From Dehalococcoidia bacterium (GTDB lineage Bacteria; Chloroflexota; Dehalococcoidia; Plut-88900): a stretch of 64,000 nucleotides of DNA. Under the pieces are notes generated by a model. That model saw only the letters and a list, made by a program, of their open reading frames with translations, searched no databases and was not told where the DNA came from. Below are positions 26,841 through 56,123 of the stretch, piece after piece (position 1 is the first letter of the stretch; every line of letters begins with the position of its first letter). The stretch is taken from positions 96,001-160,000 of the forward strand of contig CBDBLV010000002.1 in assembly GCA_965207225.1 (NCBI GenBank), given 5' to 3'. The translations under genes were made by a program, and so were the position numbers.

Positions 26841-27262
26841 ATGAACGACAGGAATGACTACATACCAGCCGCCCTCTACGCCAGGGTCTCCAGCGACCGT
26901 CAGGACGTCGATCTGTCCGTGGCGGCTCAGATGCGGGCGCTCCGGGACTACGCCGAGAAGAACGGCTACCTGGTTGCCCGAGAGTACATCGACGAGGCCG
27001 AGAGCGGGCGCGTCGCGGACCGCCCCGAGTTCCGCAAGATGCTCGACGAGGCCACCAAGCCCGACGCCCCCTTTCAGGAAATCCTGGTCTGGAAGTTCTC
27101 GCGCTTCACCCGCAAGCGCGAGCACGCCGTCGCCTTCAAGTCCATGCTCCGGCGCAAGGGCGTCAGGGTCGTCTCTATCACCGAGCAGGCCGACGACTCG
27201 CCAACCGGAAAGCTGCTTGAGGGCATCATCGAGAGCGTGGACGAGTTCTACTCCGAGAACCT
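26841..27262 (+). pseudogene. N-terminal half of large serine recombinase, interrupted at FYSENL
   Basis: YARVSSDRQD...ESVDEFYSENL; similarity to 3463-5058 stops here and resumes at 54905. Confidence 0.92.
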
Positions 27263-28842
27263 GTTACCGGTGGTTCAATTGACTCTAACTCTTCCGTTGG
27301 GATGCCGAGGGTGAGATTGACGTTGTTCTCCCCGTCGATGGTCACCTCGTCGAGAAGGAGCCGCAACACCTCGCGGCGCTCCTCGTCCGGCAGGTCGTCC
27401 AGTCTGTCGCCGACCCGGTTGGCCCACTCGACCACGTGCTCACCCAAAGCCAGCTTCTCCATCGCCGCCATCTCCCTGGCGCGAAGGTCGTCCAGCCCTG
27501 CCCGCAGCGTCTCCAACCGCTCGGTGATGAACTTGCGCTGCCGGTCCATCTGCTCCTCGGTGATCTTCTCGGTGACGTAGAGTCTGATCACCCGGTCTTC
27601 CTCGAACTGCACCCTCTGAAGCTCGCGTTCCGCCCTGGCAATCTGGTTCTCCAGCCCTCCGTCCTCCTGCGTGTCCAGCGACTCGATGCCGGCAACGATG
27701 AGGCCGGGGGACTCCAGCACCTTCTTGACCTCGCCCCAGACCAGTCCCTCCAGCCGCTCCGCACGGATCATCGTGTGCTTGCGGCAACCCGTGCGGAAGT
27801 GCTGCACGCCGTAGCACTTGTAGTAGCGGCGGGGGACGTCCATCTCGTACTTGTAGACCTTGCCGTTGCGCTTGACCGTCCGCTTCCTGGTGGCCATGCA
27901 GCCCATGAGCATCCCGCACCCGGTGCACCGGACAAGGTGCTGCAACAGGTAGAATATCTTGGTGTTGCGGTAGGAGCGGGTGCGTCGCTTCTTCATGAGG
28001 CTCTGGGCCATATCCCAGGTCTGCTCGTCCACTATCTGCGGGAACGGCACGGGTATCCAGGTCTCCCTGTCCTTCTCGTAAACTCTCGTCCCATCCTCGG
28101 TGGATACGTAGCGGGCCTTGCCGTACCACCACGTGCCCTTGTAGGTCTCGTTGCTGAGGATACGGTATACCTGTCCGTCCCACCACCGCTTGCCGCCGTT
28201 GGCGACGGGAACGCCGTCGGCCATGAGACGCTGGCCGATCACCCGCGCTCCAAGGTCGTCCCGCACGCACATGCGGAAGATGCGGCGGACGACCTCGGCC
28301 TCGTCCTCCGCTATCTCGGGCCTGCCGTCGTCCCCGATGCGATAGCCGTAGGGGACGTTGCCGATGGGGATTCGGCCCTGCTTGGCCGCGCCGCGCCTGC
28401 CCATCGACGCCCTCTCCCGGAAGTTGTCCAGCTCGATCTTGCCGATGGCGGCCATGAGGCCGAAGGTCTTCATGTCGATGGCGTCCATGACGGCTTCCAA
28501 CTCTATGTGGTGCGCCTCGACCACCTCCATGAGGGCGGCTGCAGGGTACATGCCCCGGCTGAGCCGGTCGGACTTCCAGCAGACGATGGTGTCGAAGCGT
28601 CCCCGCCTGGCGTCGGCGAGCATCCTCTGAAACTCAGGGCGCTTCTTCGACCAGCCCTGTCCCACCTCCTGGTAGCGGGCCACGATGGTCAGGCCGCGCT
28701 TTTCGCAGTGGGCCTCCATGTCGGATGTCTGCTCGGAGATGGAGGTCTTGTCCTCGGCGTCCTGGCTCTGGTCCGAGACGCGGGCGTAGATGGCCGCCCT
28801 GCCTTCCTTCGCCTTGCGGCGCTGCATCTTGATTCTTGGCAT
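27226..28842 (-). CDS. Large serine integrase of the inserted element
   Basis: YARVSD, DRLSR, PYGY, CTGC..YYKC..C; 3' end crosses the attachment site. Confidence 0.94.
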   Translation of the reverse strand: MPRIKMQRRKAKEGRAAIYARVSDQSQDAEDKTSISEQTSDMEAHCEKRGLTIVARYQEVGQGWSKKRPEFQRMLADARRGRFDTIVCWKSDRLSRGMYPAAALMEVVEAHHIELEAVMDAIDMKTFGLMAAIGKIELDNFRERASMGRRGAAKQGRIPIGNVPYGYRIGDDGRPEIAEDEAEVVRRIFRMCVRDDLGARVIGQRLMADGVPVANGGKRWWDGQVYRILSNETYKGTWWYGKARYVSTEDGTRVYEKDRETWIPVPFPQIVDEQTWDMAQSLMKKRRTRSYRNTKIFYLLQHLVRCTGCGMLMGCMATRKRTVKRNGKVYKYEMDVPRRYYKCYGVQHFRTGCRKHTMIRAERLEGLVWGEVKKVLESPGLIVAGIESLDTQEDGGLENQIARAERELQRVQFEEDRVIRLYVTEKITEEQMDRQRKFITERLETLRAGLDDLRAREMAAMEKLALGEHVVEWANRVGDRLDDLPDEERREVLRLLLDEVTIDGENNVNLTLGIPTEELESIEPPVTGSRSRTRPRSR

Positions 28843-28870
28843 GGTTGTCTCCTCTGTGTATAGGACTTGG

Positions 28871-29212
28871 CTAAGGCCAACGTCGCAGCGTCAGTCGTTC
28901 GGTGGCCAAACGGTTCATGCTAACACCGGCCTCGGCTGCGTCCATCGCCAGGGCGCGGTGGGTCTCCGGGGGAATGCGCAGGGTGATCGTCCCGCTGTAG
29001 CGGCGTGTGGATATCGGCTCCGGCACTTCAATGCCCTCCTCCAGATTCAGTTGGACGGCGTGGGACACCACCTCTCGAATCCCGGTCAGGGCCTTTTCCG
29101 GCGTACCGTCCAGGTGGCTCAGCAGGCCGAACTCGGCGCACAGGCCGACGTACTCCCCGTCCTCGTCGGACCAGAAGACCCGGTAGGTGTAGCGGTCGAT
29201 CAATTCAGCCAT
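28871..29212 (-). CDS. hicB: HicB-family antitoxin
   Basis: YTYRVFWSDEDGEYVGLC.EF..LS..TPE.AL, YSG.ITLRIPPETHRALA..A..GVSMN. Confidence 0.9.
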   Translation of the reverse strand: MAELIDRYTYRVFWSDEDGEYVGLCAEFGLLSHLDGTPEKALTGIREVVSHAVQLNLEEGIEVPEPISTRRYSGTITLRIPPETHRALAMDAAEAGVSMNRLATERLTLRRWP

Positions 29213-29453
29213 GCATTTCCTCCAATCTGTCGATTGCCCTGAGCGCCTGACGGACCTGGTAAGCCTTGGCCATTCCCCGAACGGGCTGGATGTTCACCAG
29301 CGGCCTGCCCTGCCAGGGCATCCTGTAGAAGAGATGGCTGCCCCTCTGTCTCGGCTCTCCGAAGTAGCGGTCGCAGACCCTTCTGAGGTCGTCGAACCGG
29401 ACGTTCCGAGGGTTGCGCCGCATGTTGTCCAGTGTCCTGTCCACGATATTCAC
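29205..29453 (-). CDS. hicA: HicA-family mRNA interferase
   Basis: RFDDL...GSH..Y..PW...NIQ...AKAYQVRQ. Confidence 0.88.
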   Translation of the reverse strand: MNIVDRTLDNMRRNPRNVRFDDLRRVCDRYFGEPRQRGSHLFYRMPWQGRPLVNIQPVRGMAKAYQVRQALRAIDRLEEMHG

Positions 29454-29482
29454 ATGATGGCACTAATGCCACCCCGTGTCAA
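29454..29482 (-). promoter_or_regulatory. hicAB promoter TTGACA-N17-CATCAT with palindromic operator TGGCAcTAaTGCCA (29458-29471)
   Basis: Seen directly; consistent with HicB autoregulation. Confidence 0.65.
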
Positions 29483-29509
29483 GGACGACGCAGCTTCCTG
29501 CAAGACGCC

Positions 29510-29716
29510 TCAGTCCTCCCCATCCGGGCCGTGCTGAGGCGATGGGTCCTCAGGGGAAGCCTCTTCGTCCTGGGTCAATTTGGCCAGTATGGTGAAGAGC
29601 CTGCGCAGGCGGTCCCGGGCGTCGGGAGCGGGGTTGCAGTTGATCGCCACCACGCGCAGTTCTGCGGAGGCTTCCCTTCGCGTCTTCTGCTCTGTCCTGC
29701 GGGTGGCTTCTTTCAA
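29510..29716 (-). CDS. Small protein (PAPDARDRLRRLFTILAK), possible directionality factor
   Basis: 68-aa ORF upstream of integrase/hicAB; function inferred from position only. Confidence 0.5.
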   Translation of the reverse strand: MKEATRRTEQKTRREASAELRVVAINCNPAPDARDRLRRLFTILAKLTQDEEASPEDPSPQHGPDGED

Positions 29717-30906
29717 GATCGCTGCTCTTGTCGCTTTGCTTGCGGTCGGATAGGTGCTCAGGGTTGACCTACCGGACTACGGCCCGGTCGTTACGTCAGT
29801 GTGGACGACCGGAATGGCGAGCGTTATCCCTCAGAGGGGGTATTCATCCGTGCAACCGGTTTCATTCATCCCCCGTAGCGATGGCGAGACGCAATGGGGC
29901 CAGACCCGGCTACCGGGATGAGGCCGTGGAGGCCACGGCGTCACCGGGGTTGTTGGTCGCTCTGTCGAACTCAGCGCCACCTCGCTCACCTCGTCGTGGT
30001 CTGCTGCGACGCACTTGATCGCAGCGTTCACCAGAGAGTGTGAACGGTTCAGACGCGAAAAAAGACCTCACGCAAGGTGGCACCTTCCGAGGTCCCTTTT
30101 TGGCGGGCCGTTTCTTGCAGTGGCAGGGGTGTACAGGAAAAGGAGTTTGGTGACTGACTGGTCAAAGTCGTGATTCCGTAGCTGAACCAGGGGCAAAACC
30201 CACTCTACCGGACGTGAGCGGTGAGCAATCTGATGAAAGGGCGGAGTCCGGTCTCCAATGACAAAAAGATGCTTGAGGTGGGGGTGCATGACGCGGCCAA
30301 AATCGACGGCCCGATGACAAAACCGGCCAAAAAGTGCGCTTGAGGTGGGGGTGCGTTACGCGGGGTGCGACATCGCAGAAAACACGGACTTGGCGGAATT
30401 CACAGCTGAGACGAATTTCTTGAGGAGGAGGACATTGCCATGAAGACCACCGGACACGGCATTGAGGACAGCAAAGACGTGGAGAACATGTACCACATGC
30501 GGCTCATGACGTTGCTGCAAGAGCTGGTGCGGGAGCGCGGGTACAGGGGCGCTGCGCGGGCGCTGGAGATCGACCAGCGCACGGTGGCCGAGAGCGCAAG
30601 GACGGGAAGGCTGTCGCGGCGTATGCGGGAGGCCCTGGAGCGGGCTTTGCGGTAGGGCGTGGGTTCTACGGCGGTCCGCCAGCGGGAGCCCAACGACGCC
30701 TTGGAGGAACGGTTGGGGGCGCTGGAGGGCGCGGTGAAGGCCCTGGGGCAGGACGACTTCATGGGGGCGAAGATGACCGGGGGCGCTCACGCCCACGCCG
30801 TTCCTTCCCAGCAAGGCGCTGATGGAGGGGGAGACGGAGCGGAGCGTCAGGACGGGAGAAAAATCCTCCGTCGGAGTCCTTGACCCGGCGCAAGTATCTC
30901 GACCTA

Positions 30907-32114
30907 GTACCGTTTCAACTTGAATATGCTGGATAGATGTGTTGAAGTTTAGTGCGAGCGTGGTGAGTGGAGAAGCGCCAGTCTATGACAGCGCCGGCCT
31001 CATTGCGCTCACGTTCCAGCGCCAAGACTTCTCGCTTCAGTACAGCCTCGTCGCCGATTCGGCGGTTGAGACACTGGTTGCTCAAGACACTCAGCTCTAT
31101 CTCGGCCATGTTCAGCCAACTGCCGTGTACTGGGGTGTAGTGGAACTCGAGGCTCTTGGCAATACGGCGCGCTTCCGCCGGCTCGAAGGCATCGTACAAC
31201 GAACCCAGCTTGTGTGTGTTGAGATTGTCCAGCACCAGCCGTATCGTCTGGGTGTGAGGGTACGCCTCATCGACCAGCCATCTCATCTGATATACGAAAT
31301 CCACGGCAGTACGTTGCTCGGTCACCTCGACATGCTTCCAGCCGGCTTTCGGCTCACAGATCATGAACAGGTTGCGTGTGCCGTTTCGCTTGTACTCGTA
31401 GTCATATCGTTCCACCCGCCCCGGCTTGGCCCTGATGGATGGCCTCTTATCGGCCACCAGTTGCTTGGACGTCTCGTCGAAGCAGACCACGGGACGGTCC
31501 GGGTCGTAGTCTTCATCATACAGGTCGAGCACGTCCTCCATTCGAGCTACGAACTCCCCGCTCACTTGGGGGACGCACCACTCCTTCTTCTTCCACGGCT
31601 TGAGTTCGTTTTTTTGAGTATCTGGCGCACCGTCTCGAGCGAGATGCTCTCGGCAAACCCCATCGCCACCACCCTGTCGGCAAGCAGTTGCAGCGTCCAA
31701 ACCGCGTGGCCTTCGGGTGCGTTGCTGCACGCGATGGCTATCAGATGTGCTTCCTGCCTGCCGTCCAACTTGCGCTTCTGCCCCGGTCGCGCTCGCTCAT
31801 TGAGGGCCCCGTCGAGCCCCTCGTGCACAAACCGGGTGCGCACACGCCCCACCGTGGATACGCTTATCAATAGGCCATTGGCGATGTCGCGGTCGGGCAT
31901 ACCTTCGTCTGCCTTCAGCAACACCAACGCTCGCTTCACCTTACGAGCCGAGGCTTCGCCACGACTCACTAACTGCTTCAGATGTGTCCGCTCCGACCCG
32001 TTCAACTCCACTTTGTACTTGAGAGCAGGCATGTCTTCGTACGTCCTCCCCATAAGATCATACATAAAGACTAACCTATTTCTTATATCTGTTAAATACA
32101 CCTGGAAACGGTAC
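30907..32114 (-). mobile_element. IS630-family insertion sequence with TA target duplication
   Basis: Terminal IR GTACCGTTTC/GAAACGGTAC, TA at 30905-30906 and 32115-32116, empty site CTAG. Confidence 0.93.
30915..32032 (-). CDS. IS630 transposase, two ORFs joined by -1 frameshift at A7 (31609-31615)
   Basis: HTH ORF ends ..ILKK, DDE ORF begins KNELKPW..FDET..LDNLNTH..WLNMAE. Confidence 0.9.
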
Positions 32115-32413
32115 TAGTGACCATTGAGCCCGCCGATGACAACGAGGAGGTATTCGGCGAGGCTTGGACGCTCATCGTCCGGTGGCGGGCGCTCACGCTG
32201 AGGTTGTGGACGCAGTCGTGGTCGTCCGGCGTTACGTTGTGCAGGTCGCTTTGGGCAATTTCCGGGGTGGGGGCACGCAGGGGGTCTTTTCGGCCTCACA
32301 GATCGGCTATGATGACTTCACTGTTTGGCTTTCTCCAGGGTTTCCGACCATAGAAACCCGGGTGCGTGATCCCTGTTGCACGGGCTTCGCCCAAGAGGGA
32401 ATGCTGGCAATGC

Positions 32414-32524
32414 GGAGTTTGACGTTGGTCCTTCGCAACCAGTGCGGGCCGAACCGACGGAGTTGACGCAAGGGCCTCCGTTCTCGGTCCCGTCCAGAGG
32501 GTTGGAGTTTGACGTTGGTCCTTC
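32414..32524 (+). repeat. Three repeats at 45-bp period (GGAGTTTGACGTTGGTCCTTC twice, degenerate middle copy)
   Basis: Starts at 32414, 32459, 32504. Confidence 0.7.
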
Positions 32525-33337
32525 ACCCGCTGGACACCGGTCTGACGGCTGGGGTTGATCGCCTCTCCGTCGGGCCAAGGGAACGGGTGCGCCTTCCGCG
32601 CCTCGTCCCCGGCAAACTGGTCGACGTCGGCGCTTGTCGCATCGACCGGTTCAGCATGTCTGCGTGATGGCTGACGCAGTCGGTCGCACCGCAGTTCCGA
32701 CACGCGCCCGGCTGCCTGTGTCCATGAGCAGGCTGGCCGCTGCACGTCTGGCTGTTTCTCCCTGTCAGTACCAACTCCCGGGCCAGGTTGCTCGTCCCAA
32801 ACCCACTTCGTCCCCTTCGCGCGTCCCTTTGGCTGGCTCACGTCCCAGACGTTCCGCCCTGCCACGTGTGCCACCTAGCCTCGTCAGTCATCTCTGGCCT
32901 GACAGTGAGAAGCGCGGGAACAGGCACGGGTGGGCCGCAGTTGTGGCCGCCTGCGCACTATCGCCAGTCGCGCTGTCACCGTCGCCGGTTACGGCGGAGG
33001 CGGCCCTCCGCGTCGGGGCCGGGGTTGAAGTCGATGGTTGCCGCGCCGAACTCGGAGATGGCCCGGCCACTGTTCTCTGATTCTGTTTGGTTCTCGGCTT
33101 CTTTCAAGGTTGCCACTCTCGTCGCGTCGATTGCCCGGCGTTCGAGTTGGGAATCAAAGGACTGCCCGAACTGCAACTGGCTTTCTCCAACCAGCGTGGG
33201 CTATGGGAGAGACGAGCGTTATCCCTCGGAAGGGGTCTTCATCCATGCAACCGTTTCATTCGTGATAGCCCCTTCCAGGGGATACCCCGCCAAGGGGTCG
33301 CCGTGATGTCATGGGGTAGTACAGGAAAACGCGTCCG

Positions 33338-33530
33338 TGTACATGTTGTACATCTGGGCGGTTTGCAAAGCTGGAACAGGGGGAAAGCAGCCCCTACAGG
33401 GCGTGAAAAGCGAACACTTTTTGTCAGGGACCGGTTGCGACGGGCTGGTACATAGCCCGTAGCTGAAGCGGTACATGTTGTACACCCTGAGAGAGTCGGC
33501 AGCCGTGTACAAAACGGGTACATGTTGTAC
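33338..33530. repeat. Three copies of GTACATGTTGTAC upstream of 33545
   Basis: Copies near 33338, 33471, 33518. Confidence 0.75.
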
Positions 33531-33544
33531 CGGAGGAGGGACTG

Positions 33545-34423
33545 ATGGAAGCGAGTGAGGTGGTCAAGACTGAAGGCGGAGACGCTGAAGAGGAGCACGT
33601 CCAGAGGCTCATGGCCCTGCTGCACGAGGTGGTGCGAAGAGAAGGGAGCCGTAAGGGAGCGGCGCGGGCGCTGGGGATAGACCGGCGGACCGTGGGTGCC
33701 TGCATGGATGGCGGGGGAATGACGTGGCGGCTCAGGGAAGCCCTGGAGCGGGGCCTCCGGGATGGGGTGGGTTCGTCCGCCGCCCGTCACCGGAGGCGTC
33801 ACGACGCGCTGGAGCGTCGGGTGGAGAAGCTGGTGAAGGAACTTCACGAGGGTCTGGACGCCGTCAAAGGCGAGGTGAAAGTCCTGTGTGAGGAGCAGAG
33901 CGGGGCGTTAGCGAAGATCGAGAAGAGGCTGTCGCGTGCGGAAGCCCAGCGAGAGTCCACGACGGGACCGACGGAGGCCCAGGACGCAACCGGAGACGCG
34001 CCGGAGGAGGCCCCGGCGACGGACAAGCCGTCGGCGAGGGCCAGGTACCCGAGGCGGCTGAATCCCGAGCTGGTGACGAAGGAGCCCGCGCCCGACGACG
34101 AGGAGGTCTTCGGCGAGGCGTGGCCGCTCATCGAGGAGTGGCGCGAAATCTGGAAGGCGGGACACGTGGGCACAGGCAAGGGCCTGGCCTGGCTGGAGAC
34201 CGAGGAACGGGTTCGCGAGCTGGAGGTTGCCCTGCTCGAAGAGCACGGGATGACCCTTCCGCCGGAGACGGAGCCGCTGCACGGACTCTACCGAAGCACA
34301 CAGCTCACCTGGCGCAGGGACACCCTCTGGGAGGTCCGCAGGGCGCTGGCGTGGAGATACCTGCTGTGGAAGGCGCTCACGTGCGGCCTGTGGCGGAGCC
34401 GCTGGTGGCCGGGGCGCGCTTAG
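33545..34423 (+). CDS. Hypothetical protein: N-terminal HTH, coiled coil, conserved C-domain
   Basis: KGAARALGIDRRTVGAC HTH; strong GGAGG RBS; paralog in the window. Confidence 0.8.
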   Translation: MEASEVVKTEGGDAEEEHVQRLMALLHEVVRREGSRKGAARALGIDRRTVGACMDGGGMTWRLREALERGLRDGVGSSAARHRRRHDALERRVEKLVKELHEGLDAVKGEVKVLCEEQSGALAKIEKRLSRAEAQRESTTGPTEAQDATGDAPEEAPATDKPSARARYPRRLNPELVTKEPAPDDEEVFGEAWPLIEEWREIWKAGHVGTGKGLAWLETEERVRELEVALLEEHGMTLPPETEPLHGLYRSTQLTWRRDTLWEVRRALAWRYLLWKALTCGLWRSRWWPGRA

Positions 34424-36155
34424 AGGCTGTCCCATAAGTGGGAAGTGACGGATAGCGCCCCGGCAGCTGTTCCGACGCGACATCTACGAAGAGATGAAGA
34501 TGCCGCTTAGACCAGGGTTCGCTTTTACGACCCCAGCCGGGAAGTGATAGGGGAATGCTGGATTGAAGGGTGAGAGTTGTGTAGTAGCGGCAGTTGCTGT
34601 GAGAGAGTGGGGAGAGGCACTAGGCCGCGGATACTTGAGTGGAGGGGTCGGCTCCGGGTCTCCACGCCTTCCAGATAGTGCGGAGGTTGAAGGCGATGGC
34701 AAGCACCGTCCATTCGGCCTTCACGTTGGCAAGGCCACGCAACAGGAACCTCCGAGCCCTCAGTTGTTCCTTAAAGATCCCGAAGACCGGTTCGACCAGG
34801 TACTTCCTCCGTTTGTAGGCCGTCGTGGCTGCCTCGGTAGACATCCATTCTCTGTGAGCGCGCAGTACATGGTCGCGTGCCCCGATTTCTAGCTTGCGTC
34901 CCCGTGGGTAATCCTTGGTGCAGACCCCAAATGCGGGGCAACTGCGGCAGGCCGAGGCAGAGGCTGCTCGGTATACCCGGACCGGCGTTCCGGCGTTTGT
35001 GGACGAGCTGGAGAAGCGCAATATCTTTCCATGAGGACAGACGTACCTGTCGTTGCCCTCGTCATAGGTGAATCGGTCCTTGTGATAGGGATTGTCCAGT
35101 GGTCGGGCCATATCCGGCATTGCCACTTGCTGACCTTTACGGTGACTCGCCTCCAGGTTCCGGCCTCCACAATAACCGGCGTCTGCCAACGTCAACGGAG
35201 TCCTGGTTCCTGTAACACCCTCTGCCTGTTCCATCATCGGGGTCAACTGGAGGGCGTCATTGACTTGGTCCACAACGTCTACGGCGGTCAGCAGCATGCC
35301 GGTCGTCTGTCCGCCTGGTGCCAGCGGTGACACCATAGCTTGGGCGTTGTAGCTGGGCATGAAGCCCTGACGGGTCCTCATGAGTTTTGCATCCCGATCG
35401 GTGAGGTTGATGCGCTTGCGATTCCGCTCAGAAGCCAACTCGTCCATCGCATGACGAATCTGCTCCCTCAGCGTTTGCTTGTTGGCTAATTCTTCCGGCA
35501 GATGTAATGCGGGGGTATCCTCACCTGCTTCGTTCTGAGCTTCAAGGTCGGAGATCGCCTTCTCCACCCTGTTCAATAACCGACCCAACTCCCCCGCATC
35601 GTAGGTCCTATCTCTTGCCGCATTGGCCCCCACCTTAGTTCCGTCAACCGCCTGCACCGCCAGATCCACCAGCTTCATCGTCACCGCCGTGCGCACAGTG
35701 CGCTCGAACAGCTTCCTCATGGACTGCCTGTGTTCCTTGTAGAACCGCCACAAGGTGTTGTGGTCAGGATGCTGCCAGCCGGTCAGCCACAGATACGGTA
35801 TCTGGTCCCGGCAGGCCGCCTCCAACTTGCGGCAGGAGCGCACCCCGGTCATGAAACCGTACAGCCACACGCTCAACAAAGCGCGGGGATGGTAGGCCGG
35901 CGCTCCCATCGGGTCGCCGTCTATCTCCACGCCGAGTTCAGCCCAGCCTTCCCTATCCAGTGCGTCCACAAACTCGGCCACGAATCGGGCTGGATGGTCT
36001 AACGGCAACAGATCGTCAAGAGTCGGGGGCAACAGCCACATCTGTTCTCGGTCCATATCTCGAAGCGGCATCTCCATCTCTCCTTCGTCGATGTCGCTTC
36101 AAAGGTACACCTAACAAGGTTCCATTCACCACTCCCCAACTTCTGAGACAGGCTG
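34424..36155 (-). mobile_element. IS1182-family insertion sequence
   Basis: Imperfect IRs AGGCTGTCCCATAAGT / AGCCTGTCTCAGAAGT; GCTTAG on both flanks (34418-34423, 36156-36161). Confidence 0.85.
34620..36077 (-). CDS. IS1182 transposase
   Basis: LLP..HPAR, PAYHPRALL..YG..SCRKLE, PDHNTL, DGTKV.ANA, TDRDA, ADAGY, VEPVFG.FK. Confidence 0.95.
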   Translation of the reverse strand: MEMPLRDMDREQMWLLPPTLDDLLPLDHPARFVAEFVDALDREGWAELGVEIDGDPMGAPAYHPRALLSVWLYGFMTGVRSCRKLEAACRDQIPYLWLTGWQHPDHNTLWRFYKEHRQSMRKLFERTVRTAVTMKLVDLAVQAVDGTKVGANAARDRTYDAGELGRLLNRVEKAISDLEAQNEAGEDTPALHLPEELANKQTLREQIRHAMDELASERNRKRINLTDRDAKLMRTRQGFMPSYNAQAMVSPLAPGGQTTGMLLTAVDVVDQVNDALQLTPMMEQAEGVTGTRTPLTLADAGYCGGRNLEASHRKGQQVAMPDMARPLDNPYHKDRFTYDEGNDRYVCPHGKILRFSSSSTNAGTPVRVYRAASASACRSCPAFGVCTKDYPRGRKLEIGARDHVLRAHREWMSTEAATTAYKRRKYLVEPVFGIFKEQLRARRFLLRGLANVKAEWTVLAIAFNLRTIWKAWRPGADPSTQVSAA

Positions 36156-38261: not shown

Positions 38262-38264
38262 TTT

Positions 38265-38309
38265 GCTAGAGAGGGAGGCTATCCATTCGGATGAGCCTCC
38301 CTCTCTAGC
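38265..38309. terminator. 16-bp perfect stem-loop between convergent genes
   Basis: GCTAGAGAGGGAGGCT...AGCCTCCCTCTCTAGC. Confidence 0.7.
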
Positions 38310-38345
38310 GGCATGTATGCCGCCCACTTCCTCCGTAGGTAACAC

Positions 38346-43934: not shown

Positions 43935-43993
43935 CGGTCTCTCCTCAGTGTCCCCGTCTACGGGACAATTCCCATCAACGACCGTGATGTTCT

Positions 43994-44020
43994 CTGGTTG
44001 TTTGATTATCGCAACTGTAT
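43994..44020 (+). repeat. 27-bp direct repeat, copy 1 (promoter/operator-like)
   Basis: CTGGTTGTTTGATTATCGCAACTGTAT, identical at 50315-50341. Confidence 0.9.
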
Positions 44021-44079
44021 AATGGCTTTGCAACATTCGTCAAAACTCAATCAGGTGTCTCGGTCCCACCATTTGAATC

Positions 44080-48050: not shown

Positions 48051-48298
48051 ACGCGCACCTACCAGCGCCAAGTCGAAATGATGTGGAGATTGCATAACCT
48101 TCGGCGTTGTATTGGACATCATCGATGGCGAGCCAATACTGCGGGACTGGAGGGTCATCAGGGAGTCCTTCTGGCGCAGCCGAGTCGGGCGGTTCCCGGA
48201 GAGAACAGGCACAGGGAACTTCGTCGGTCAGCAGGAGCATCGTGAACACACATGGACAGAGGTATTGACTAGTGGACCTACAGGTTGAGAGGCAAGCG

Positions 48299-48946
48299 AT
48301 GACGACGCTCTTCATTCTATTATTCGCAACGTTGACGCCCGCCGCCGTACTACTGGGTGCAGGATCGTGGATGGTCAAGAGGCTACGGGGAGACGTGGGC
48401 CGTGCGCTGGGCGTCATATGCATTGTCCTTGGCCTACTGCTGGTGATAGTGGCCGTCCTACTTGTTTTTCTGGTTCAGACTTCTATCGAAGAAGGGTCGG
48501 GAGTCACTGAGCCTAACCTTCAAGCTTCCCAGACCGAGAGACATCCAACACCGCCGCTTCCTCAAGCGTTCCTTGAATACGATGGTCGCCAGCATCGCGG
48601 ATGGAGGGGGTCCTACTGCTGGCCGGTAGGCGGAAGCAGCATTGTTTGCTCAGACAGCGTGGGGTGGGAGGGCTTTGACAAGGCATCTTCTGTAGTGGTG
48701 GAGCGGGGAAGCGGGTTCAAGATCGTCACTTCAGAGAGCACTCTCCCTGAGCAGGTACGCGTTGAGGTATTCACTGCCCTGGGAACAGAACCGAACATGA
48801 TGCCGAGAGGAGAGCCAGTCTACTTGACTGACGTGCGGGAGGTGCCCGCGCTTGATCTACCGGCAGGTGTTTACTTTGTCAGCGCATTCTTTGGATTCCA
48901 TTTTGGAGACGTTGCCCACGGTTTCAGAGTGGAGATCGTTGAGTAG
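48299..48946 (+). CDS. Membrane-anchored hypothetical protein (GSYCW motif)
   Basis: Two N-terminal TMs followed by a beta-rich domain. Confidence 0.6.
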   Translation: MTTLFILLFATLTPAAVLLGAGSWMVKRLRGDVGRALGVICIVLGLLLVIVAVLLVFLVQTSIEEGSGVTEPNLQASQTERHPTPPLPQAFLEYDGRQHRGWRGSYCWPVGGSSIVCSDSVGWEGFDKASSVVVERGSGFKIVTSESTLPEQVRVEVFTALGTEPNMMPRGEPVYLTDVREVPALDLPAGVYFVSAFFGFHFGDVAHGFRVEIVE

Positions 48947-50291
48947 GTACAGTTCCAATTCGCCGGGAGGGGGCACTCCTTTGGAATCCTGCCAAGGATC
49001 CACAACATACGATGCTGGAGGTTCTCCGGGAGGGACTCGGGCCTCAATACCGTCCTCTCGTACGGAAGAACCGGACTGGAACGCGGGACGCGGAACCAGA
49101 GCGGCATTGGTGGGTGCCGTCATGGGCCTCGTCCCTGCGATGGTACTCGGCTCTCTTCGGTTCCTGCTGGCTGAGGGACCGGAGCGCACAGAAGAGCTTG
49201 TGGGCAACATCGCCATCGCCCTTGTCTACACCTCCCCCTATGTGCTTACTCTCATAGTGTCTAGGGAGAAATCGCCGGCGCTTCGTGGCGGCCTTCTGTC
49301 AGCGCTCGGCCTGTTGTCATTCGTAGCGAGCTTCTCGGCAATGTCGCTGATCTCCTTAGTCCTACTACCGGCGACCTTCGTGATCTGGTTCGCCGCAGTT
49401 AGAAGCCTTACTGCTTCGGTTCGTCCAATGGTAATGACCTTCCTCGGAACTCTGGCAGGGCTTCTCGTCGCCGTGACGGTCGGCTTTAGTTTCTTCGCCC
49501 AGTTCGGAATCCAGGACGACGAGGACCGATGTTGGGTCCTGTCTCACGACTCCGATGGACAGTCACGCTGGGAGTCTCGGCCAAATGTCGGGGGGCCTGG
49601 GGGCCTCAGTGCCGGACCCCTGAGCGGCGGCCCCGCGATGGTGACCTACGACGGTGGTGTAACGTGGCAGAGAGTTGGCCCCTTGGTAAGCTCCCGAGGC
49701 CACTGTACCAGCGACATCATCTCCAACACCGAAGCCTTCATGAGCATGGGGATCCTGGCGGTTGCATTCCTTGGCACGGTTTTGATACTGAGGATTGGAC
49801 GCGATTCGCGCCGTTTGATCCTGCCTAACTGGCAACTGCCTAGGTGCATTGTCAGGTGTGTGATGCTCGGGGTAAGACGTACCAGCAAGAGTCTAACAAG
49901 GGTCGTCCTGGGACTGGGACGGTGGCAGTACCTCGTAGGCACCCTTGCGGTAGGCTTGCTAGCTTTTGCCATTATGGAAATTAACACTGCCTACCTACGG
50001 GACTTTCTGTCCGTGAGTATATACGGGACGAGGCCTCACAGGATACCGTGCGACGATTGGCCCACGCGTGACGAGGTAGAGCAGACCCTCAAACAACATA
50101 CCGGAGTGATTCGCAGGATAGAGTTTATCGGGTCTGGAAGTGTCGATCTTTCAATCAATACTTGGAGTTGCCCTGGCAAAGCAGAACTCTATATCTACTA
50201 CCCGGCAAAGCGTCACATCAAGACGATAAGGACGATAATCGGAAATGAGAAGTATTTCTTCGGCGTCCCATACACCTTGAGGAATTACTGA
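48852..50291 (+). CDS. Polytopic membrane protein with Cys-containing C-domain; start uncertain
   Basis: Long ORF with many TMs. Confidence 0.6.
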   Translation: MIYRQVFTLSAHSLDSILETLPTVSEWRSLSRYSSNSPGGGTPLESCQGSTTYDAGGSPGGTRASIPSSRTEEPDWNAGRGTRAALVGAVMGLVPAMVLGSLRFLLAEGPERTEELVGNIAIALVYTSPYVLTLIVSREKSPALRGGLLSALGLLSFVASFSAMSLISLVLLPATFVIWFAAVRSLTASVRPMVMTFLGTLAGLLVAVTVGFSFFAQFGIQDDEDRCWVLSHDSDGQSRWESRPNVGGPGGLSAGPLSGGPAMVTYDGGVTWQRVGPLVSSRGHCTSDIISNTEAFMSMGILAVAFLGTVLILRIGRDSRRLILPNWQLPRCIVRCVMLGVRRTSKSLTRVVLGLGRWQYLVGTLAVGLLAFAIMEINTAYLRDFLSVSIYGTRPHRIPCDDWPTRDEVEQTLKQHTGVIRRIEFIGSGSVDLSINTWSCPGKAELYIYYPAKRHIKTIRTIIGNEKYFFGVPYTLRNY

Positions 50292-50314
50292 GCATAGACG
50301 AGCCGTGACGCTAG

Positions 50315-50341
50315 CTGGTTGTTTGATTATCGCAACTGTAT
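50315..50341 (+). repeat. 27-bp direct repeat, copy 2
   Basis: Identical to 43994-44020. Confidence 0.9.
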
Positions 50342-50467
50342 GATATGATTGCAACAAATGGCATGGACGGTGACGACGCTTCGCCTCGTCCGTCAGCAAG
50401 AGTTACGCACGCAGAGACAAGAGCGAGACGCTAAAGACACGACAACACTGAAATAAGGAGGTTGATT

Positions 50468-50788
50468 ATGGCCAAGTACCTGTATCAGGCAAACTACACA
50501 CCGACGGGAATGCAGGGCCTGCTGCGGGAAGGCGGCAGTTCGCGACGTAAGGTCTTCGAAGACATGGGCAGGGAGCAAGGCGGACAACTGGAGGCGTTCT
50601 ACTACGCCTTCGGTGGCGCGGACCTGTACATCATCTTTGACCTGCCCGATGCGGCGACGGCAGCCGCGATCTCCCTTGCCATCACGGCGGGAGGCGCACT
50701 CAGCATCAGTACGGTGCAGCTGCTCACTCCAGAGGAGATCGACGAAGCCACGCAGAAAACGGTGAACTATCGTCCTCCGGGAGCCTGA
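50468..50788 (+). CDS. GYD domain protein
   Basis: KYL..ANYT..G..GLL.EGGS.R..GG.LEAFYYAFG..D; TAAGGAGG RBS. Confidence 0.88.
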   Translation: MAKYLYQANYTPTGMQGLLREGGSSRRKVFEDMGREQGGQLEAFYYAFGGADLYIIFDLPDAATAAAISLAITAGGALSISTVQLLTPEEIDEATQKTVNYRPPGA

Positions 50789-50895
50789 CTTCCAACTGAG
50801 ACGTAAAATGGGTGGCGGCTAAGTTCTCTCGGAAGGGTGAACGCTGGTTTGAGGAGGAGCGAGAACGATCCTATTGCCACCCGTGGAGGCAGAGC

Positions 50896-52326
50896 ATGTC
50901 GAAGCTGATGGTCCTTGCCGCCTTAGTGTCGCTGTTAGCAATCCTGGCTTGCTCAGACGACGGCCAAACTCCGGCCCCGCAGCCTACGGCCGAGCCAACG
51001 GCCACCCGTGCGCCGGAGGCCACCGCCACTCCGACACCGACAGCCACTCCTCAGCCTACGGCGACGGCGACACCCCAAACGGACAGCTCGGAGGCCAGCC
51101 GGAGTCTTGCCCCGCTGGATTTGGAAGACCCACAGGCGTTCCTGTCGGCTCTATCTGCACAGGAGCAGTCCTGCCTTGCTGACGGCAATCTCGGCATCGC
51201 CCAGATCATGACGGCAATGACTTCGACCGATGGAGCCGCGGAGGGGGACGCCATCCTAGACTGTCTGGAGGATGAGACAGTATTGCGCATGTTCCTGAGC
51301 GAGCCGCTGACGGCAACCGGCGAACTGAGTGATGAGACCTCCGCGTGCATTCGCGAAGGTCTCGGCGGGATGGACCTGCACCCGATGATGAAATCGCCCG
51401 GGGCGGCTGCCGGGGCGATGGATGCCCGGATAGTCGGGATGGCAGGCTTCCTGACGTTCACCGCCTGTCTGAACGATGAGGAGTGGGAAGCGGCATCCTC
51501 CGCACTGGAGTTAGGGCCTCGTGACAAATCCGGTACGGATTGCCTGCTGGCCGAACTCGGCGGACCGACAGGGGTCGCGGAAGCCCTGCTCCGCTTGGAC
51601 CAATCCGGCTTGCCGAGGGACTTCATCGGCGCGGCGGCCAAGTGTGGCGTGGGTTTTGCGGGAATGTCGGAGAACGTGCCTGACGACTCCGGCTCCGGTG
51701 GTATAGGCGGCGACACTTCCACGGAGGGTATGGGGCTGCCGCCGGACACGCTGCACCCCGTAGCTGTTGACGACCCACAAGCCTTCCTGTCTGGACTGTC
51801 GCCCAGGGAGCAGTCCTGCCTCGGCGACAAGGGCATCGGTCCCCAGGAACTCTTGCAGATGACGGGGCACTCTCCAGGCGGCTCGCCGGAGGCCGCTGTG
51901 GACATCGTCAACTGTTTGCAAGACGATACGGTACTGAGGCTGTTCCTGACCACGCTCGTCGGACAGGTTGACCCGTTCAGTCAAGAGACTTCATCGTGCA
52001 TACGGGAAGGATTCGTACCGATTGACCTGCGCGGTCTGTTGGCTCCGGCCGTTGGCGGGTTTACCCCCGAAAACTCCCTGGCGCTGGGGATGACGGCACT
52101 GAACGTCTCAGTGGTCTGCATGAACGACGATGAATGGGAGACCTACGCTCCCAGATTGGGGTTGCCGCCCGATTTCAGGGAGGGCGCTGCCTGCCTGTTC
52201 GAGGAGATGGGTGGACCGGAGAAGCTGGCGAAAGCCATGCAAGAAGCCAGCTTGGGCGAACCATCGGAAGCGTTCCTAAGGGCGGCGGAGACCTGCGGGC
52301 TGGAGGGTATGCCTCCGTCCCGATAA
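50896..52326 (+). CDS. Lipoprotein with PT linker and two Cys-rich helical repeats
   Basis: ILAC lipobox; DPQAFLS.LS..EQSCL..CL.D.TVLR.FL..ETS.CIREG occurs twice. Confidence 0.8.
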   Translation: MSKLMVLAALVSLLAILACSDDGQTPAPQPTAEPTATRAPEATATPTPTATPQPTATATPQTDSSEASRSLAPLDLEDPQAFLSALSAQEQSCLADGNLGIAQIMTAMTSTDGAAEGDAILDCLEDETVLRMFLSEPLTATGELSDETSACIREGLGGMDLHPMMKSPGAAAGAMDARIVGMAGFLTFTACLNDEEWEAASSALELGPRDKSGTDCLLAELGGPTGVAEALLRLDQSGLPRDFIGAAAKCGVGFAGMSENVPDDSGSGGIGGDTSTEGMGLPPDTLHPVAVDDPQAFLSGLSPREQSCLGDKGIGPQELLQMTGHSPGGSPEAAVDIVNCLQDDTVLRLFLTTLVGQVDPFSQETSSCIREGFVPIDLRGLLAPAVGGFTPENSLALGMTALNVSVVCMNDDEWETYAPRLGLPPDFREGAACLFEEMGGPEKLAKAMQEASLGEPSEAFLRAAETCGLEGMPPSR

Positions 52327-52478
52327 ATTATTCCGCGCTTCATACCACAAGATGATCGTACGCTACAAATAGATGAAGGGTCACAAAGATTCCCAGGGAC
52401 GGGGTTGTTATCAGAACGCTGCTCGTACATTGGCGATATGTCGGAGTTGCAGCCGGCATCGCGCTGGGCCTGGTCCTG

Positions 52479-53102
52479 GTGGCGTTTCTCACTTTTCCGG
52501 ACCGCAATGCGCTGGTTGCCAAGGGTCCCATGAACACGGGCCACGAGGGATTGGGCTGCCAGGAATGCCACTCAGCCGTGGCGGGCACCGCCGCGCAACA
52601 ACTGAGCTCCAACGTCTACCACTGGCTGGGCCTGCGGGAGTCCACCATAGGCTTTGGCTCCGAGGATGTCGGTAACGCGGCCTGTCTGGACTGCCACGAG
52701 AGGCCGGATGACCGACACCCCGTATCCCGCTTTGTGGAACCGCGCTTCTCCGATGCGCGGGAGCACATTGCGGCCCACACGTGCGTCACCTGCCACACCG
52801 AGCACCAGGGAGTGCGGGTGACGCAGCCCACCATCGGTTTCTGCACCCACTGCCACCAGGACACCTCGTTGGAAGACGACCCCATCACCCCCACGCATGT
52901 AGAGCTGGTGCGCAGGGGGTCGTGGAACACCTGCCTCCAGTGCCACGACTTCCACGGCAACCACGTCAGGGACACGCCGCTGCGCCTTGAAGAAGGGGTG
53001 CCGGAGGCGCTCATCCTGGAATACTTCCTGGGAGGGCCATCGCCCTACGGCGACGAGAAGCGCGTCGAGCCGTCCTCGACCGGGGAAGGCGGCGACCCAT
53101 GA
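52479..53102 (+). CDS. Pentaheme c-type cytochrome (true start probably upstream)
   Basis: CQECH, CLDCH, CVTCH, CTHCH, CLQCH. Confidence 0.88.
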   Translation: MAFLTFPDRNALVAKGPMNTGHEGLGCQECHSAVAGTAAQQLSSNVYHWLGLRESTIGFGSEDVGNAACLDCHERPDDRHPVSRFVEPRFSDAREHIAAHTCVTCHTEHQGVRVTQPTIGFCTHCHQDTSLEDDPITPTHVELVRRGSWNTCLQCHDFHGNHVRDTPLRLEEGVPEALILEYFLGGPSPYGDEKRVEPSSTGEGGDP

Positions 53103-53920
53103 AGTTCGTCGCCGTGGTCGTGGCGGTAGCCATCGTGCTCGTGGCGCTCATCGTCGCGAATGCGCCGCCGCCGGACGACGCACTCACCGATGGCGGCCCG
53201 CCCGTGCCCATTGAAGCTGTTTTCGCAGTGCTGGAAGCCGAGAACGACGCGGTGCGCCAGGTGTGGGCCAGGGACATTGTGGGAGCGGGCCAAGCGCAGG
53301 GGATTCGATTTGACGAGGACTGGCATGACGAGAGGCTGGACGCCGGGCCGCTTCCGGCGCTCTTCCTGCGGGAGACTGCCGAGGGTCTCCGGCGTAGTCC
53401 GGTTCCCCTGTATCTATTCCTCGGCTCGGACTTCCCGATCAATGACGCCAACAAGTTCACCGGCTTGCAGACAGAGCACTTTCAAGTCATCAGGCGCACC
53501 GGCGAGCCGCAGTTCTTCTTGGACCCGGATATCGGCTTTCAGACCGCCATGTTCTCGGACATCGCCTCGGCGGAGGCGTGCGTGGTCTGCCACAACAGCG
53601 ACCCGAACTCGCCCAAGACCGACTGGCAGGTGGGCGACGTCATGGGTGCGACCACCTGGTCATACCCGGAGGACGAGATAAGCATGGCCGAGGCCATGGA
53701 ACTGATAGGAGCTCTGCGCCGGAGCGTCCGTGAAGCCTATGTGCATTACCTGGATAAGGTTGCCATCTTTGCCGACCCTCCCCCCGTGGGAGACCTGTGG
53801 CCCGCAGACGGCTATTTCCTGCCATCGGCCGATGTCTTCATGGCGGAGGTGGAGGAGAGGACATCGGCCCAGACCCTTCGCTTGCTGCTGGAGGCGCAAG
53901 ACATGGGGGAGGCGCGATGA
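53099..53920 (+). CDS. Tll0287/DUF3365-like monoheme protein
   Basis: PLPA.FLRE, SDFPIN.AN, ACVVCHN..W.VGDVMGA. Confidence 0.8.
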   Translation: MKFVAVVVAVAIVLVALIVANAPPPDDALTDGGPPVPIEAVFAVLEAENDAVRQVWARDIVGAGQAQGIRFDEDWHDERLDAGPLPALFLRETAEGLRRSPVPLYLFLGSDFPINDANKFTGLQTEHFQVIRRTGEPQFFLDPDIGFQTAMFSDIASAEACVVCHNSDPNSPKTDWQVGDVMGATTWSYPEDEISMAEAMELIGALRRSVREAYVHYLDKVAIFADPPPVGDLWPADGYFLPSADVFMAEVEERTSAQTLRLLLEAQDMGEAR

Positions 53921-54486
53921 CAACGGGCCAATCCGTAGGTGAATCTCCAGTGGAAGCTGCCGACAGCAACGGGAGCCGGGGAAGGCCCGTTCGTGCTGGC
54001 CGCCCATTCGCGTTGCCGGTAGCGGCGTGGCGGTGGCGGATGGTGGGTGTCCTCGGCGTGCTCCTCTACGTGGGCCAGGATGTCGCTGGGCTGCGGTGGG
54101 AGTGGCTCGCCCAGGCCCAAGACCTGGACGGGTACAAGTATGTCACCGGCGCCGGACTGCTTTCGTATGTGGGATGGCAGTGGTGGCTCTTCTACTCCCG
54201 TCTCAAGCGGCGGAATCTGCGGAGGCTGCTGCCGTGGCATCAGCGGACCGGCGCACTGGTGCCACTGCTGTTCTACGTGCACAGCGTGGAGGTGGGCTAC
54301 GGCTACCTGGCGGCGCTCAGCTGGGTGTTTCTGGGCAACATGCTTGTTGGTGCGGCGAGTCCCCTGGGCATCAGGATCAACAACCGCTACTACACCGTCT
54401 CGTGGGGAGTTGCCCACGTCTCACTGGCCGCCGTCACGGTTGTCCTGGGTCTCTTCCATGCTTACATCGCCGTGTACTACAAGTAG
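53917..54486 (+). CDS. Membrane protein with His residues in TMs (cytochrome b-like)
   Basis: WHQ, YVH, AH, FH in hydrophobic helices; ATGA overlap with the previous gene. Confidence 0.65.
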   Translation: MTTGQSVGESPVEAADSNGSRGRPVRAGRPFALPVAAWRWRMVGVLGVLLYVGQDVAGLRWEWLAQAQDLDGYKYVTGAGLLSYVGWQWWLFYSRLKRRNLRRLLPWHQRTGALVPLLFYVHSVEVGYGYLAALSWVFLGNMLVGAASPLGIRINNRYYTVSWGVAHVSLAAVTVVLGLFHAYIAVYYK

Positions 54487-54585
54487 CGATGGCAATTGGG
54501 TGTCACACTACAGGGATCGCAAGTCCTTGGTGCGCCGACAGGCTGCCAAGCGACATCTCGAATATGGCGGTATCTACCGTAAGCG

Positions 54586-54810
54586 GTGGTGGAGCTGGAC
54601 GCGCTGGAGACCTGCCGCGCCAGCGAGCAGGGTGAAGACGCCACCCCGTCACCGCCGCCCACGATAGACATCACGGCGGCCAGCGGAGCCACCGAGGGCG
54701 GGGACGCCGTCTTCACGCTGTACGGCCAACCCGGCGCCAGATGCGGCGCTGGACGTGAGCGTTGCGGTCTCGGCCTCGGGCGACTCCGCTACGGACTCTG
54801 GAATTGCGTG
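54586..54810 (+). pseudogene. Fragment of Calx-beta-like surface protein gene at element end
   Basis: PTIDITAASGATEGGDAVFTL, then frameshift to ALDVSVAVSASGD. Confidence 0.45.
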
Positions 54811-54904
54811 TAGCACCACGCCCTGCTGCCGAGGTCAGTTGGCTTCAAGTTCGGCCGCCCATGTGTACCTGATTTTTTTGTCGTTATTGGATAACCGATA
54901 TCCT

Positions 54905-56123
54905 CGCCCAGGAGGTCACCCGGGGGATGCGCGAGGCAGCGTCCAGGGGCTTCTGGGTCACCAGCAGGGTGCCCTACGGCTACCGCAAGCTGATGGTGCA
55001 GGACGGGGCCAAGAAGCGGCCCAGGCTGGACCCCGACGAGGACACGGCCCCAGCCGTCAGTCGCATCTTCGACATGGCCGAGGCCCGCAAGGGCATGCTG
55101 GACATCGCCAAGACCCTGAACGACGAGGGATTCGCCAGCCCCGCTGGAAGGCGCTGGTCGAAGACCGTGATCCACAACATGCTCAGAAACGAGGTCTACA
55201 CGGGCACGCTACTCTGGGGCGTCAGCGGCAAGGGCAAGGCCGAGCCGGTCCGGGTGGAGAACGCATTCCCGGGCATCATCTCCAAGGCCCAGTTCCGCCG
55301 CGTGAGCAGGCTCATGCGCTCCCGAGCACCGAAGAAGACGCACCCCCGCCGCGTGGGAAGCACCTACATGCTCAGCGGCCTCGTCAAGTGCAAAGCCTGC
55401 AACCGGGCATTCAGCGGACAGGAGGCCAAGAGCGGCCGGTTCTCCTACTACGTCTGCCAGTCGATCATGAAGCACGGCGCCGGGGCCTGCGACTCCCCCA
55501 GGATCAACGCCAGGCGCTTCGAGGAGATGGTCATTGGCAACATACGCTCCAACATCCTCACGGACAGCAACATCCGAGCCCTGGTGAAGGTCGTGGACGA
55601 GCGGATGGACGGGGTGGCCGCCGAGCAGCGCCAGCGGCTAGAGACTATCGAGGATGAGCTTGAGGACGTGAAGCGGAAGCTGGGTCGCATATGGCACTAC
55701 ATCGAGTCGACCGATACCGTCGAGATGGCGGACGCCTCGGACCGCATCCGGGAGCACAGGGACCGGCAGGCGCGCCTGGAGGCCGCCGCCTCCGAGGCCA
55801 GGGTGGTTCTCTCCGAGCGCAGGGAGTCCCTCGACGACGTGGAAACCATTGCAGCCTACGCCCAGGACATGAGCGAGTTCCTCAAAGAGAGCGAGCTCAC
55901 CGAGCGCAGGTCCTTCATCGAGACCTTCGTCAGGGAGATCGTCATCATGCCCGGAAAGGCTGTCGTCCGGTACACTGTCCCCATGCCGGACGACAGCCGG
56001 ATTCCTGGCGTTAGCGCCGAGGATATGGCGCTGAACGGCTCAGTTCTGTCTACCGTCAAGTCCGGCCCACCAGACTTGATAAAATCAAGAACCTTCCGGT
56101 TGGCCCTGGTACTGGACTTGTAG
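54905..56123 (+). pseudogene. C-terminal part of the LSR gene begun at 26841
   Basis: AQEVTRGMREAASRGFW..PYGY..CKAC..YYVC; lacks the catalytic domain, which lies at 26841-27262. Confidence 0.92.

Follow-up and report, generated by a model that had tools for sequence, protein, structure and literature searches.

A 27.6-kb island in a Dehalococcoidia genome splits a large serine recombinase gene at a conserved motif, its putative attachment site

The 64,000-nt window analysed here (G000:C2:96001-160000) belongs to the 4.03-Mb, five-contig assembly (~60% G+C) of an uncultured, sponge-associated member of the Dehalococcoidia, and harbors an island of 27.6 kb that lies between the two halves of a gene for a large serine recombinase (LSR). 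The island encodes an LSR of its own, and it is very probably a site-specific element moved by that enzyme, with the DNA coding for the conserved motif (F/Y)YSENL|A(Q/E)EV of a different LSR family (the bar marks the cut) as its primary chromosomal attachment site (attB). The preliminary description of this DNA had proposed an LSR element of this kind from the window itself. The proposal is now supported at the sequence level by the same arrangement in 13 of 80 related loci, by the recovery of both junctions (attL and attR) in all five genomes checked, by an empty site, by a core dinucleotide that is TT at both ends of one element and by the divergence of the targets that are occupied.

The split recombinase gene and the inserted island

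The features on which the argument rests are listed in window coordinates; the arms of the element's own attachment site (attP) are designated P and P', and those of attB, B and B'.

26820..27262, + strand: N-terminal half of the target (A-type) LSR gene, with its ATG at 26820 and ending FYSENL; its last ~22 nt are the B arm of attL
27261..27262, + strand: core dinucleotide CT at attL
27263..54904, no strand assigned: inserted island, 27,642 bp with one core copy counted
27226..28842, - strand: island LSR, 538 aa, with a Resolvase, a Recombinase and a Zn_ribbon_recom domain, and a match to SPbeta SprA/YokA
27263..27284, + strand: P' arm of attP, inside the 3' end of the island LSR gene, conserved in 13 loci and dyad partner of the P arm
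54881..54902, + strand: P arm of attP, conserved in 5/5 other genomes and present in a single copy in this genome
54903..54904, + strand: core dinucleotide CT at attR
54905..56123, + strand: C-terminal half of the target LSR gene (AQEVTRGM...), with Recombinase and Zn_ribbon_recom domains
3463..5274, - strand: intact paralogous LSR with an unoccupied attB (CT at 4638-4637), the G001 orthologue of which carries an 18.6-kb relative of the island
1..1017, - strand: second intact paralogous LSR, running off the window, with an unoccupied site (CT at 576-575)

The analysis confirms that an LSR gene is split by the insert, with CT at both junctions. The N-terminal half, for which an earlier note had taken the in-frame ATG at 26841 as the start, comprises 148 residues ending ...VDEFYSENL, after which the sequence is unrelated and the open reading frame (ORF) reaches its stop at 27314. 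The C-terminal frame AQEVTRGMREAASRGFW... opens at 54905 and has its stop at 56123. When the halves are joined by coordinates at the CT, they form a single 553-aa ORF with no internal stop, and precise excision would hence rebuild an intact ORF, as is characteristic of elements of the skin, SPbeta and fdxN type. Since the N-terminal half covers positions 1-128 of the 145 in the Pfam Resolvase profile and the C-terminal half retains the Recombinase and Zn_ribbon_recom domains, the cut falls at the end of the Resolvase domain and before the DNA-binding domains, at what we take to be the start of helix E. The in-frame rejoining of the halves and the occurrence of the CT at the same codon in the two other LSR paralogues of the window had both been put forward in the preliminary description, and both are upheld. 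As a separate observation, CCGGCCCACCAG near the 3' end of the split LSR (window 56045-56080) takes the place of the CTGGTGGGCCGG, or single-base variant of it, that the other displayed A-type copies carry, these two 12-mers being exact reverse complements of each other.

The island LSR gene is located at the left end of the island, antisense to the target, and its 3' end overlaps attL. By its domains (PF00239, E = 8.8e-26; PF07508, E = 5.3e-18; PF13408, E = 4.3e-07), its serine motif, the 2-bp core and the attP repeat, its product (P0003) is a large serine recombinase, and it is predicted to catalyse recombination between attP and attB. The closest solved relative is SPbeta SprA/YokA (E = 1.8e-18), and identity to the rebuilt target protein is 25%. 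The YxRVS-type motif AAIYARVSDQSQ, the serine of which is the nucleophile in the LSR family, occupies residues 16-27 and is invariant in the four in-genome paralogues. The last 12 codons of the gene come from target DNA, and in the excised circle it would encode 549 aa with a different tail.

The attP is an imperfect inverted repeat of ~46 bp centred on the 2-bp core, with 12 of its 22 positions complementary in the window copy (binomial P = 0.003) and 12-19 in five further genomes, the strongest dyad being that of G003 (19/22, P = 2.5e-9). The neighbouring CC was considered as an alternative core and rejected, given that, by inspection, a one-base shift of the centre loses the attP register, and CT is thereby supported. 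Dyad symmetry about the CT had been claimed for attB as well as for attP; the claim stands for attP but is weak for attB, where only 8 of 22 positions are complementary in the window (P = 0.16), essentially the CTCC/GGAG tetramers, and these are not conserved. The B arms vary at synonymous positions (GAGAAC, GAGAAT, GAAAAT), and their constant part is largely what the peptide motif fixes.

Recurrence of the insertion and the target family

The four in-genome paralogues of the island LSR were aligned, and relatives were sought in a species-representative genome collection. The scan returned 186 stretches encoding relatives, the best 80 of which were examined, with titles that nearly all denote metagenome-assembled genomes of Dehalococcoidia or other Chloroflexota. 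Target fragments were then located by tblastn of the rebuilt 553-aa target protein against these 80 loci. In 13 of them (L004-L006, L008-L011, L013, L015, L017, L018, L025 and L057, L017 and L018 being identical contigs), an antisense fragment of the target family lies directly downstream of the LSR and ends exactly at residue 148. Read in the orientation of the LSR, the junction is ...tcgATTGAACCACCGGTAwC-AG-(A/G)TTCTC..., that is, the conserved P' arm, the core and the antisense of GAGAA(C/T); the core of L006 and L010 is AA, corresponding to TT on the target strand. In all five residue-148 genomes checked, the other half of the target was found in the right orientation, its C-terminal part starting L|A(Q/E)E(V) and directly preceded by the conserved P arm CCCATGTGTACCTGATTTTTTTGTCGTTATTGGATAACCGATATC, with attL-attR distances of 18.6, 25.1, 27.6, 29.2 and 70.8 kb. 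The core is matched at both ends in every case, as CT/CT in the window and four genomes and as TT/TT in G003, where the same dinucleotide at attL and attR is expected because a 2-bp crossover core requires it. The preliminary description had named insertion of homologous elements at unrelated sites, and misassembly of the junctions, as outcomes that would speak against it. The search for homologous integrases yields the same codon, the same orientation and conserved P and P' arms in the 13 loci, and misassembly is countered by the recurrence of the junctions in these independently assembled sequences and by a further locus (L022) whose homology to the window stops exactly at 27261.

The empty site is provided by the window itself. 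The left flank of the G001 element aligns to window positions 5881-4636 (90% nucleotide identity) and its right flank to 4638-3545 (87%). As these flanks, 18.6 kb apart in G001, meet at the core in the window, the intact gene at 3463..5274 (-) is the orthologous unoccupied attB, and the comparison reveals a clean insertion at the CT with no further duplication. The G001 element itself is 95% identical to the window element over ~4 kb. With regard to INDEPENDENCE of insertions, identity among the three LSRs (window, L004 and L005) is 98-99%, and the L005 element shows 95-99% nucleotide identity to that of the window over at least 10 kb, whereas the target fragments (390 nt) of L004 and L005 match the window fragment at only 81-82%. 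Such near-identical LSRs in diverged targets imply that the insertions are independent. Over all occupied sites, the truncated L015 fragment left out, target-fragment identity ranges from 75 to 92%, and three occupied sites (L006, L008 and L013) lie on a single chromosome (contig OZ244924.1).

The target family comprises 33 copies in this genome, of which 31 are full-length, one is frameshifted and one is the split gene. All 32 unoccupied sites retain the motif with little variation, in most of them as (F/Y)YSENL|A(Q/E)EV, the core being CT in 24 and TT in eight. Target LSR genes share the layout of the intruder: each lies at the end of its island, and the junction coincides with the 3' end of the gene. 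Convergent overlaps with tRNA genes (Ile, Lys, Met, Val, Ala, Val and Gln) occur in seven of them, and the 3' end that these genes share, ...GTCAAGTCTGGTGGGCC, continues as the reverse-complemented 3' end of the tRNA. The overlaps are at C1:177682-177758, C2:75260-75336, C5:1911928-1912002, C5:1036504-1036580, C1:245981-246056, C5:130428-130504 and C5:589542-589615. To our knowledge, the use of many different tRNA genes by one serine-integrase family seems unusual. The 33 copies and the seven genes that abut tRNA genes bear out the earlier supposition of a common island family, which is multi-copy here and whose integration enzyme is the target.

Seven other target LSRs form convergent pairs with a second LSR type, with a ~52-bp overlap in a repeated unit of ~3.1 kb (C4:734112-737230, C4:871801-874919, C5:1960480-1963619, C5:2030765-2033880, C3:23312-26457, C3:57409-60572 and C3:85284-88444). 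The homology of solo copies switches at C4:735689-735698, inside the 52-bp overlap, in sequence that by eye resembles a tRNA T-arm. The convergent pairs suggest that the 3' end of one LSR gene is where the island of the other LSR inserts.

Site specificity, excision and alternative explanations

In a maximum-likelihood tree of 84 LSRs, the users of residue 148 fall into two well-supported clades, in which 7 of 9 and 7 of 11 rows, respectively, are on this site (14 of 20 in all, window included). Target labels are clustered on the tree, requiring 20 changes against a mean of 47.4 in shuffled labels, a value reached in none of 200 shuffles. The six members of the two clades that are found elsewhere make the residue-148 specificity preferential rather than absolute, and the site primary rather than exclusive. 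We read these six as probable secondary-site insertions, of the sort that the cited part of the work on streptococcal serine integrases describes (PMC4701971).

Other lineages of the same LSR family are associated with further positions. One of them, a distinct clade of five with full support, inserts into the same target LSR family at NE(V/T/A)Y(T/A)G(T/E)L|, near residue 253, where the core is CT. Target fragments that end at residue 251-253 were detected in five loci (L027, L028, L029, L031 and L039), with which L089 (G009:C1:3311250-3311750) is grouped. Both junctions of L031 were recovered, 35.7 kb apart, the core being CT, the halves rejoining in frame and the P arm closely resembling that of the residue-148 elements; this is the C-terminal partner found in one of the five genomes searched (G009), and none is listed in the other four. 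In L074, which belongs to the residue-253 clade, the fragment ends at residue 112 (AFKSML|), a single case. Different intruder lineages have therefore inserted at more than one conserved site of the one target LSR family. In another clade (L058, L063, L071 and L073), what comes after the LSR is the final ~40 codons (VPMPxDS...), in sense, of a gene of the target LSR type. This 'LSR-tail' group could represent a fourth insertion position in the target family, with one junction seen and no N-terminal partner listed on the L071 contig.

Unrelated genes serve as flanks elsewhere in the tree. A sister clade (L041, L048, L049 and L068) abuts Mg_chelatase (comM) genes, as confirmed with Pfam, one branch abuts the N-terminus of a FAD-binding, GMC-like oxidoreductase, and other branches abut two helicase motifs, one case being the own-genome paralogue at C5:1542736. 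The closest in-genome paralogue of the island LSR (69% identical), encoded at 8719-10371 of L001 (G000:C5:1534000-1553000), adjoins, in antisense, the end of a helicase-like gene (...CHPRLVQTGLDLIDFPTLCWYETEN), a site it has in common with L014, L020, L024 and L032. In another LSR clade the flank, in sense orientation, is DYSVYTMRQASRRSWRIGQ, possibly a neighbouring portion of the same helicase family. We take this flank tentatively to be of the SNF2 type on the basis of motif VI; the 181-aa fragment matched no Pfam family, and the other helicase flank gave only a weak Pfam match to ResIII.

Excision was looked for in the Logan contigs of four runs (X19, X20, X1 and X2) aligned to window positions 24000-31000. 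The two best holders of the element, X19 and X20, have no joint or loose end at 27262 among the rows listed. In X1 and X2, one contig each leaves the window at 27262 and continues with B'-like sequence. These two contigs were considered as products of excision and rejected, since the motif region collects paralogues at 95% identity or more and they show only uninterrupted, near-identical genes in other sponge metagenomes. Both runs also contain a contig joint from 26217 to 26871. The P arm, single-copy in the genome, is absent from loci L001-L083, and no attP junction occurs in these sequences. In X19 and X20, single element contigs reach a word depth of ~340-440, where the chromosomal flank of that run has ~25. 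As these depths are summed over organisms sharing the sequence, they give only a hint that the element may be much more widespread in the community than this insertion.

Several results weigh against the attachment-site interpretation. Only one of the 33 candidate sites in the genome is occupied, and the evidence from homologous loci covers the best 80 of the 186 stretches that encode relatives. Six of the 20 LSRs in the two clades are at other sites, scattered singly: non-LSR DNA is the site of L007, L012, L016, L019 and L022, and an LSR gene, at residue 253, that of L039. The attB lacks significant dyad symmetry, and in five other targets only 1-5 of 22 positions are complementary. No excised attP circle or restored attB of the exact gene was seen in the contigs of the four runs (window 24000-31000), an absence that is uninformative, as contigs drop rare variants. 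No recombination directionality factor, which such enzymes need for excision, was identified, and no relaxase, mobilisation or type IV secretion family was found among the island ORFs scanned with Pfam, PHROGs and NCBIfam, an origin of transfer (oriT) being possible.

A rival explanation is a low-specificity recombinase, transposase-like in the manner of TndX or TnpX, that would have reached an LSR gene by chance. Five close relatives are in unrelated DNA, for instance in an M28-like peptidase region and an inositol-monophosphatase-like gene (both named from translations), and the L022 element (97% identical, with an LSR that is 98% identical) sits in a non-coding site. Against this stand the 14 of 20 clade members, window included, that share codon and orientation in diverged targets, together with the little mutual likeness that the secondary sites show in a by-eye comparison, and we therefore consider chance insertion improbable. 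A regulated switch, in which excision of the inner element would time the activity of the outer recombinase as in skin/sigK or SPbeta/spsM, could account for the in-frame rejoin, for the absence of stops and frameshifts from both halves and for an LSR tail that differs between the integrated and excised forms. The cargo, however, is almost completely different between elements, with only the LSR and a helix-turn-helix (HTH) gene recurring, and the insertions are scattered over many paralogues and non-LSR sites, which is the pattern of a selfish element; a domesticated function thus has little probability.

Restriction of all cases to one class, the Dehalococcoidia, would fit a single ancient insertion inherited vertically with its host gene and involving no repeated targeting. 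This explanation is already contradicted by the 98-99% identity of LSRs lying in targets of only 81-82% identity, by the G001 target, whose orthologue in the window is another, intact paralogue, and by the three occupied sites of OZ244924.1, so that we regard it as very improbable. An assembly chimera of two paralogous LSR genes is conceivable in a genome with 33 paralogues that could mislead an assembler, and no listed contig piece bridges 27262 in the four runs. Yet the same attL and attR sequences are present in many independent assemblies, several of which are complete chromosomes, and the P arm is single-copy in this genome, which leaves a chimera scarcely credible.

Under the preferred interpretation, that of an island whose LSR uses the motif of another LSR gene as attB, recombination at the core would insert the island, always antisense to the target and duplicating nothing beyond the core. 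The target would thereby be separated into a catalytic-domain stump and a promoterless DNA-binding part. If the split recombinase is inactive, as its truncation suggests, its own island would be locked and the mobility of the outer island would depend on the excision of the inner one; precise excision would restore the 553-aa ORF and presumably reactivate the recombinase. The target may be favoured because coding constraint keeps the site constant, and also for its many copies, its dispensability to the cell and its location on mobile DNA. A broader proposal, which we advance tentatively and consider rather doubtful, is that integrase genes of these Dehalococcoidia are preferred landing pads in a 'Russian-doll' parasitism. 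Distinct LSR lineages would be specialised on different positions of a tRNA-targeting LSR family (residue 148 in two clades, ~253 in a third, 112 in one case and perhaps the tail), and the inner island would disable the mobility enzyme of the outer one, returning it only by excision, as a layer of conflict or control.

LSR-driven elements that land in other mobile elements are known from the Firmicutes, where, according to the cited passages, serine-recombinase integrative mobilizable elements (IMEs) and integrative and conjugative elements (ICEs) insert in conserved genes of other ICEs (SNF2-like, Maff2-like and traG; PMC5704250, PMC4701971). The island resembles them, as far as those passages go, in an attB within a conserved gene of another mobile element, which is disrupted, in very short direct repeats and in occasional secondary sites. 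It differs in that the target is the recombinase of the host element itself, in that no mobilisation genes were found in the island scans and in its host phylum, the Chloroflexota. In the serine integrases of streptococcal ICEs that target rumA, the att site is described as lying within the 3' end of the integrase gene (PMC4701971), and the C-terminus accordingly differs between the integrated and excised forms, as it does here (538 and 549 aa). Their target in that account is, however, a housekeeping ribosomal RNA methyltransferase and the tail swap changes both proteins, whereas the island cuts its target mid-gene.

The rebuilding of genes by LSR excision is reported for SPbeta (SprA/spsM) and skin (SpoIVCA/sigK) (PMC5499854), and the cited portion of a survey of heterocyst (XisF-type) elements mentions one in an 'integrase family protein' gene and some in transposase genes (PMC4874684). 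The island shares with these a split gene and an ORF that precise excision would rebuild, but they are presented in those sources as single loci linked to terminal differentiation, whereas the LSR clade described here uses an integrase motif across many paralogues and genomes. Similarly, comM (Mg-chelatase) is given as the commonest LSR target, with 12.4% of predicted site-specific LSRs (PMC10083194); comM-targeting LSRs likewise have attB inside a conserved coding motif, and the sister clade noted above abuts Mg_chelatase. The target gene is nevertheless different here, and the main-text passages of PMC10083194 name no recombinase targets. We found in the literature no description of an LSR clade with its primary attB in the conserved motif of another LSR family, a point on which the supplementary target-domain tables of PMC10083194 may bear. 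The known landing of LSR elements in conserved genes of other mobile elements is hence extended to the integrase of the other element. The island LSR would also be a natural, comparatively validated enzyme with putatively defined attP and attB, a CT or TT core and B arms that tolerate synonymous changes, and its retargeted close relatives are material for the study of specificity change in serine integrases and for orthogonal integration tools.

Island cargo and neighbouring genes

The remaining features of the island are as follows.

28871..29212, - strand: HicB-like antitoxin gene, next to an 82-aa ORF at 29205..29453
30909..32113, no strand assigned: 1.2-kb extra segment with a 392-aa ORF that has no family match, absent from L004, L005 and L022 (95-99% identical)
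34620..36077, - strand: insertion sequence transposase (DDE_Tnp_1_6 / DUF772); L005 and L022 lack the segment 34423-36156
37107..38261, + strand: protein with four Xre-type HTH repeats, the sole non-LSR gene kept in the distant L012, L013, L015 and L057 (67-74% nucleotide identity)
41480..42349, - strand: NotI-family restriction endonuclease, paired (41480..43323) with the following gene
42346..43323, - strand: D12-class N6-adenine methyltransferase
44080..45480, + strand: Hen1, of an RNA repair pair
45345..48050, + strand: Pnkp, its partner

Further cargo includes a large protein with a solute-binding domain and a multihaem cytochrome, the remaining island ORFs having no family in Pfam, PHROGs or NCBIfam. 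Loose contig ends occur at 30908, the start of the 1.2-kb extra segment, in all four runs. No virion or lysis gene was detected, PHROGs matching only the HTH regulator among 10 island ORFs, most of which lack a Pfam match, and the best relative of the island LSR in IMG/VR is 29% identical. No conjugation genes were found among the ORFs scanned with Pfam between 1490-26805 and 56652-63052. We call the element a non-phage integrative island.

Outside the island, a defence-like cluster at window positions 8876-17945 encodes a 1130-aa protein with M78-peptidase, UvrD-helicase and PD-(D/E)XK domains, an AbiEii/AbiEi pair and a nucleotidyltransferase with a weak match to SMODS, and an MmeI-like methylase is located at 56652-59177. 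Like the island, its surroundings are mosaic, and the nested insertion illustrates the assembly of mosaic defence islands in sponge symbionts. Finally, a 572-aa ORF for a group II intron reverse transcriptase/maturase/HNH protein lies at 61334-63052 (-), and L001 (13657-15375, -) matches it in ORF lengths (572 and 236 aa) and their arrangement, which suggests a second copy of the intron on C5.

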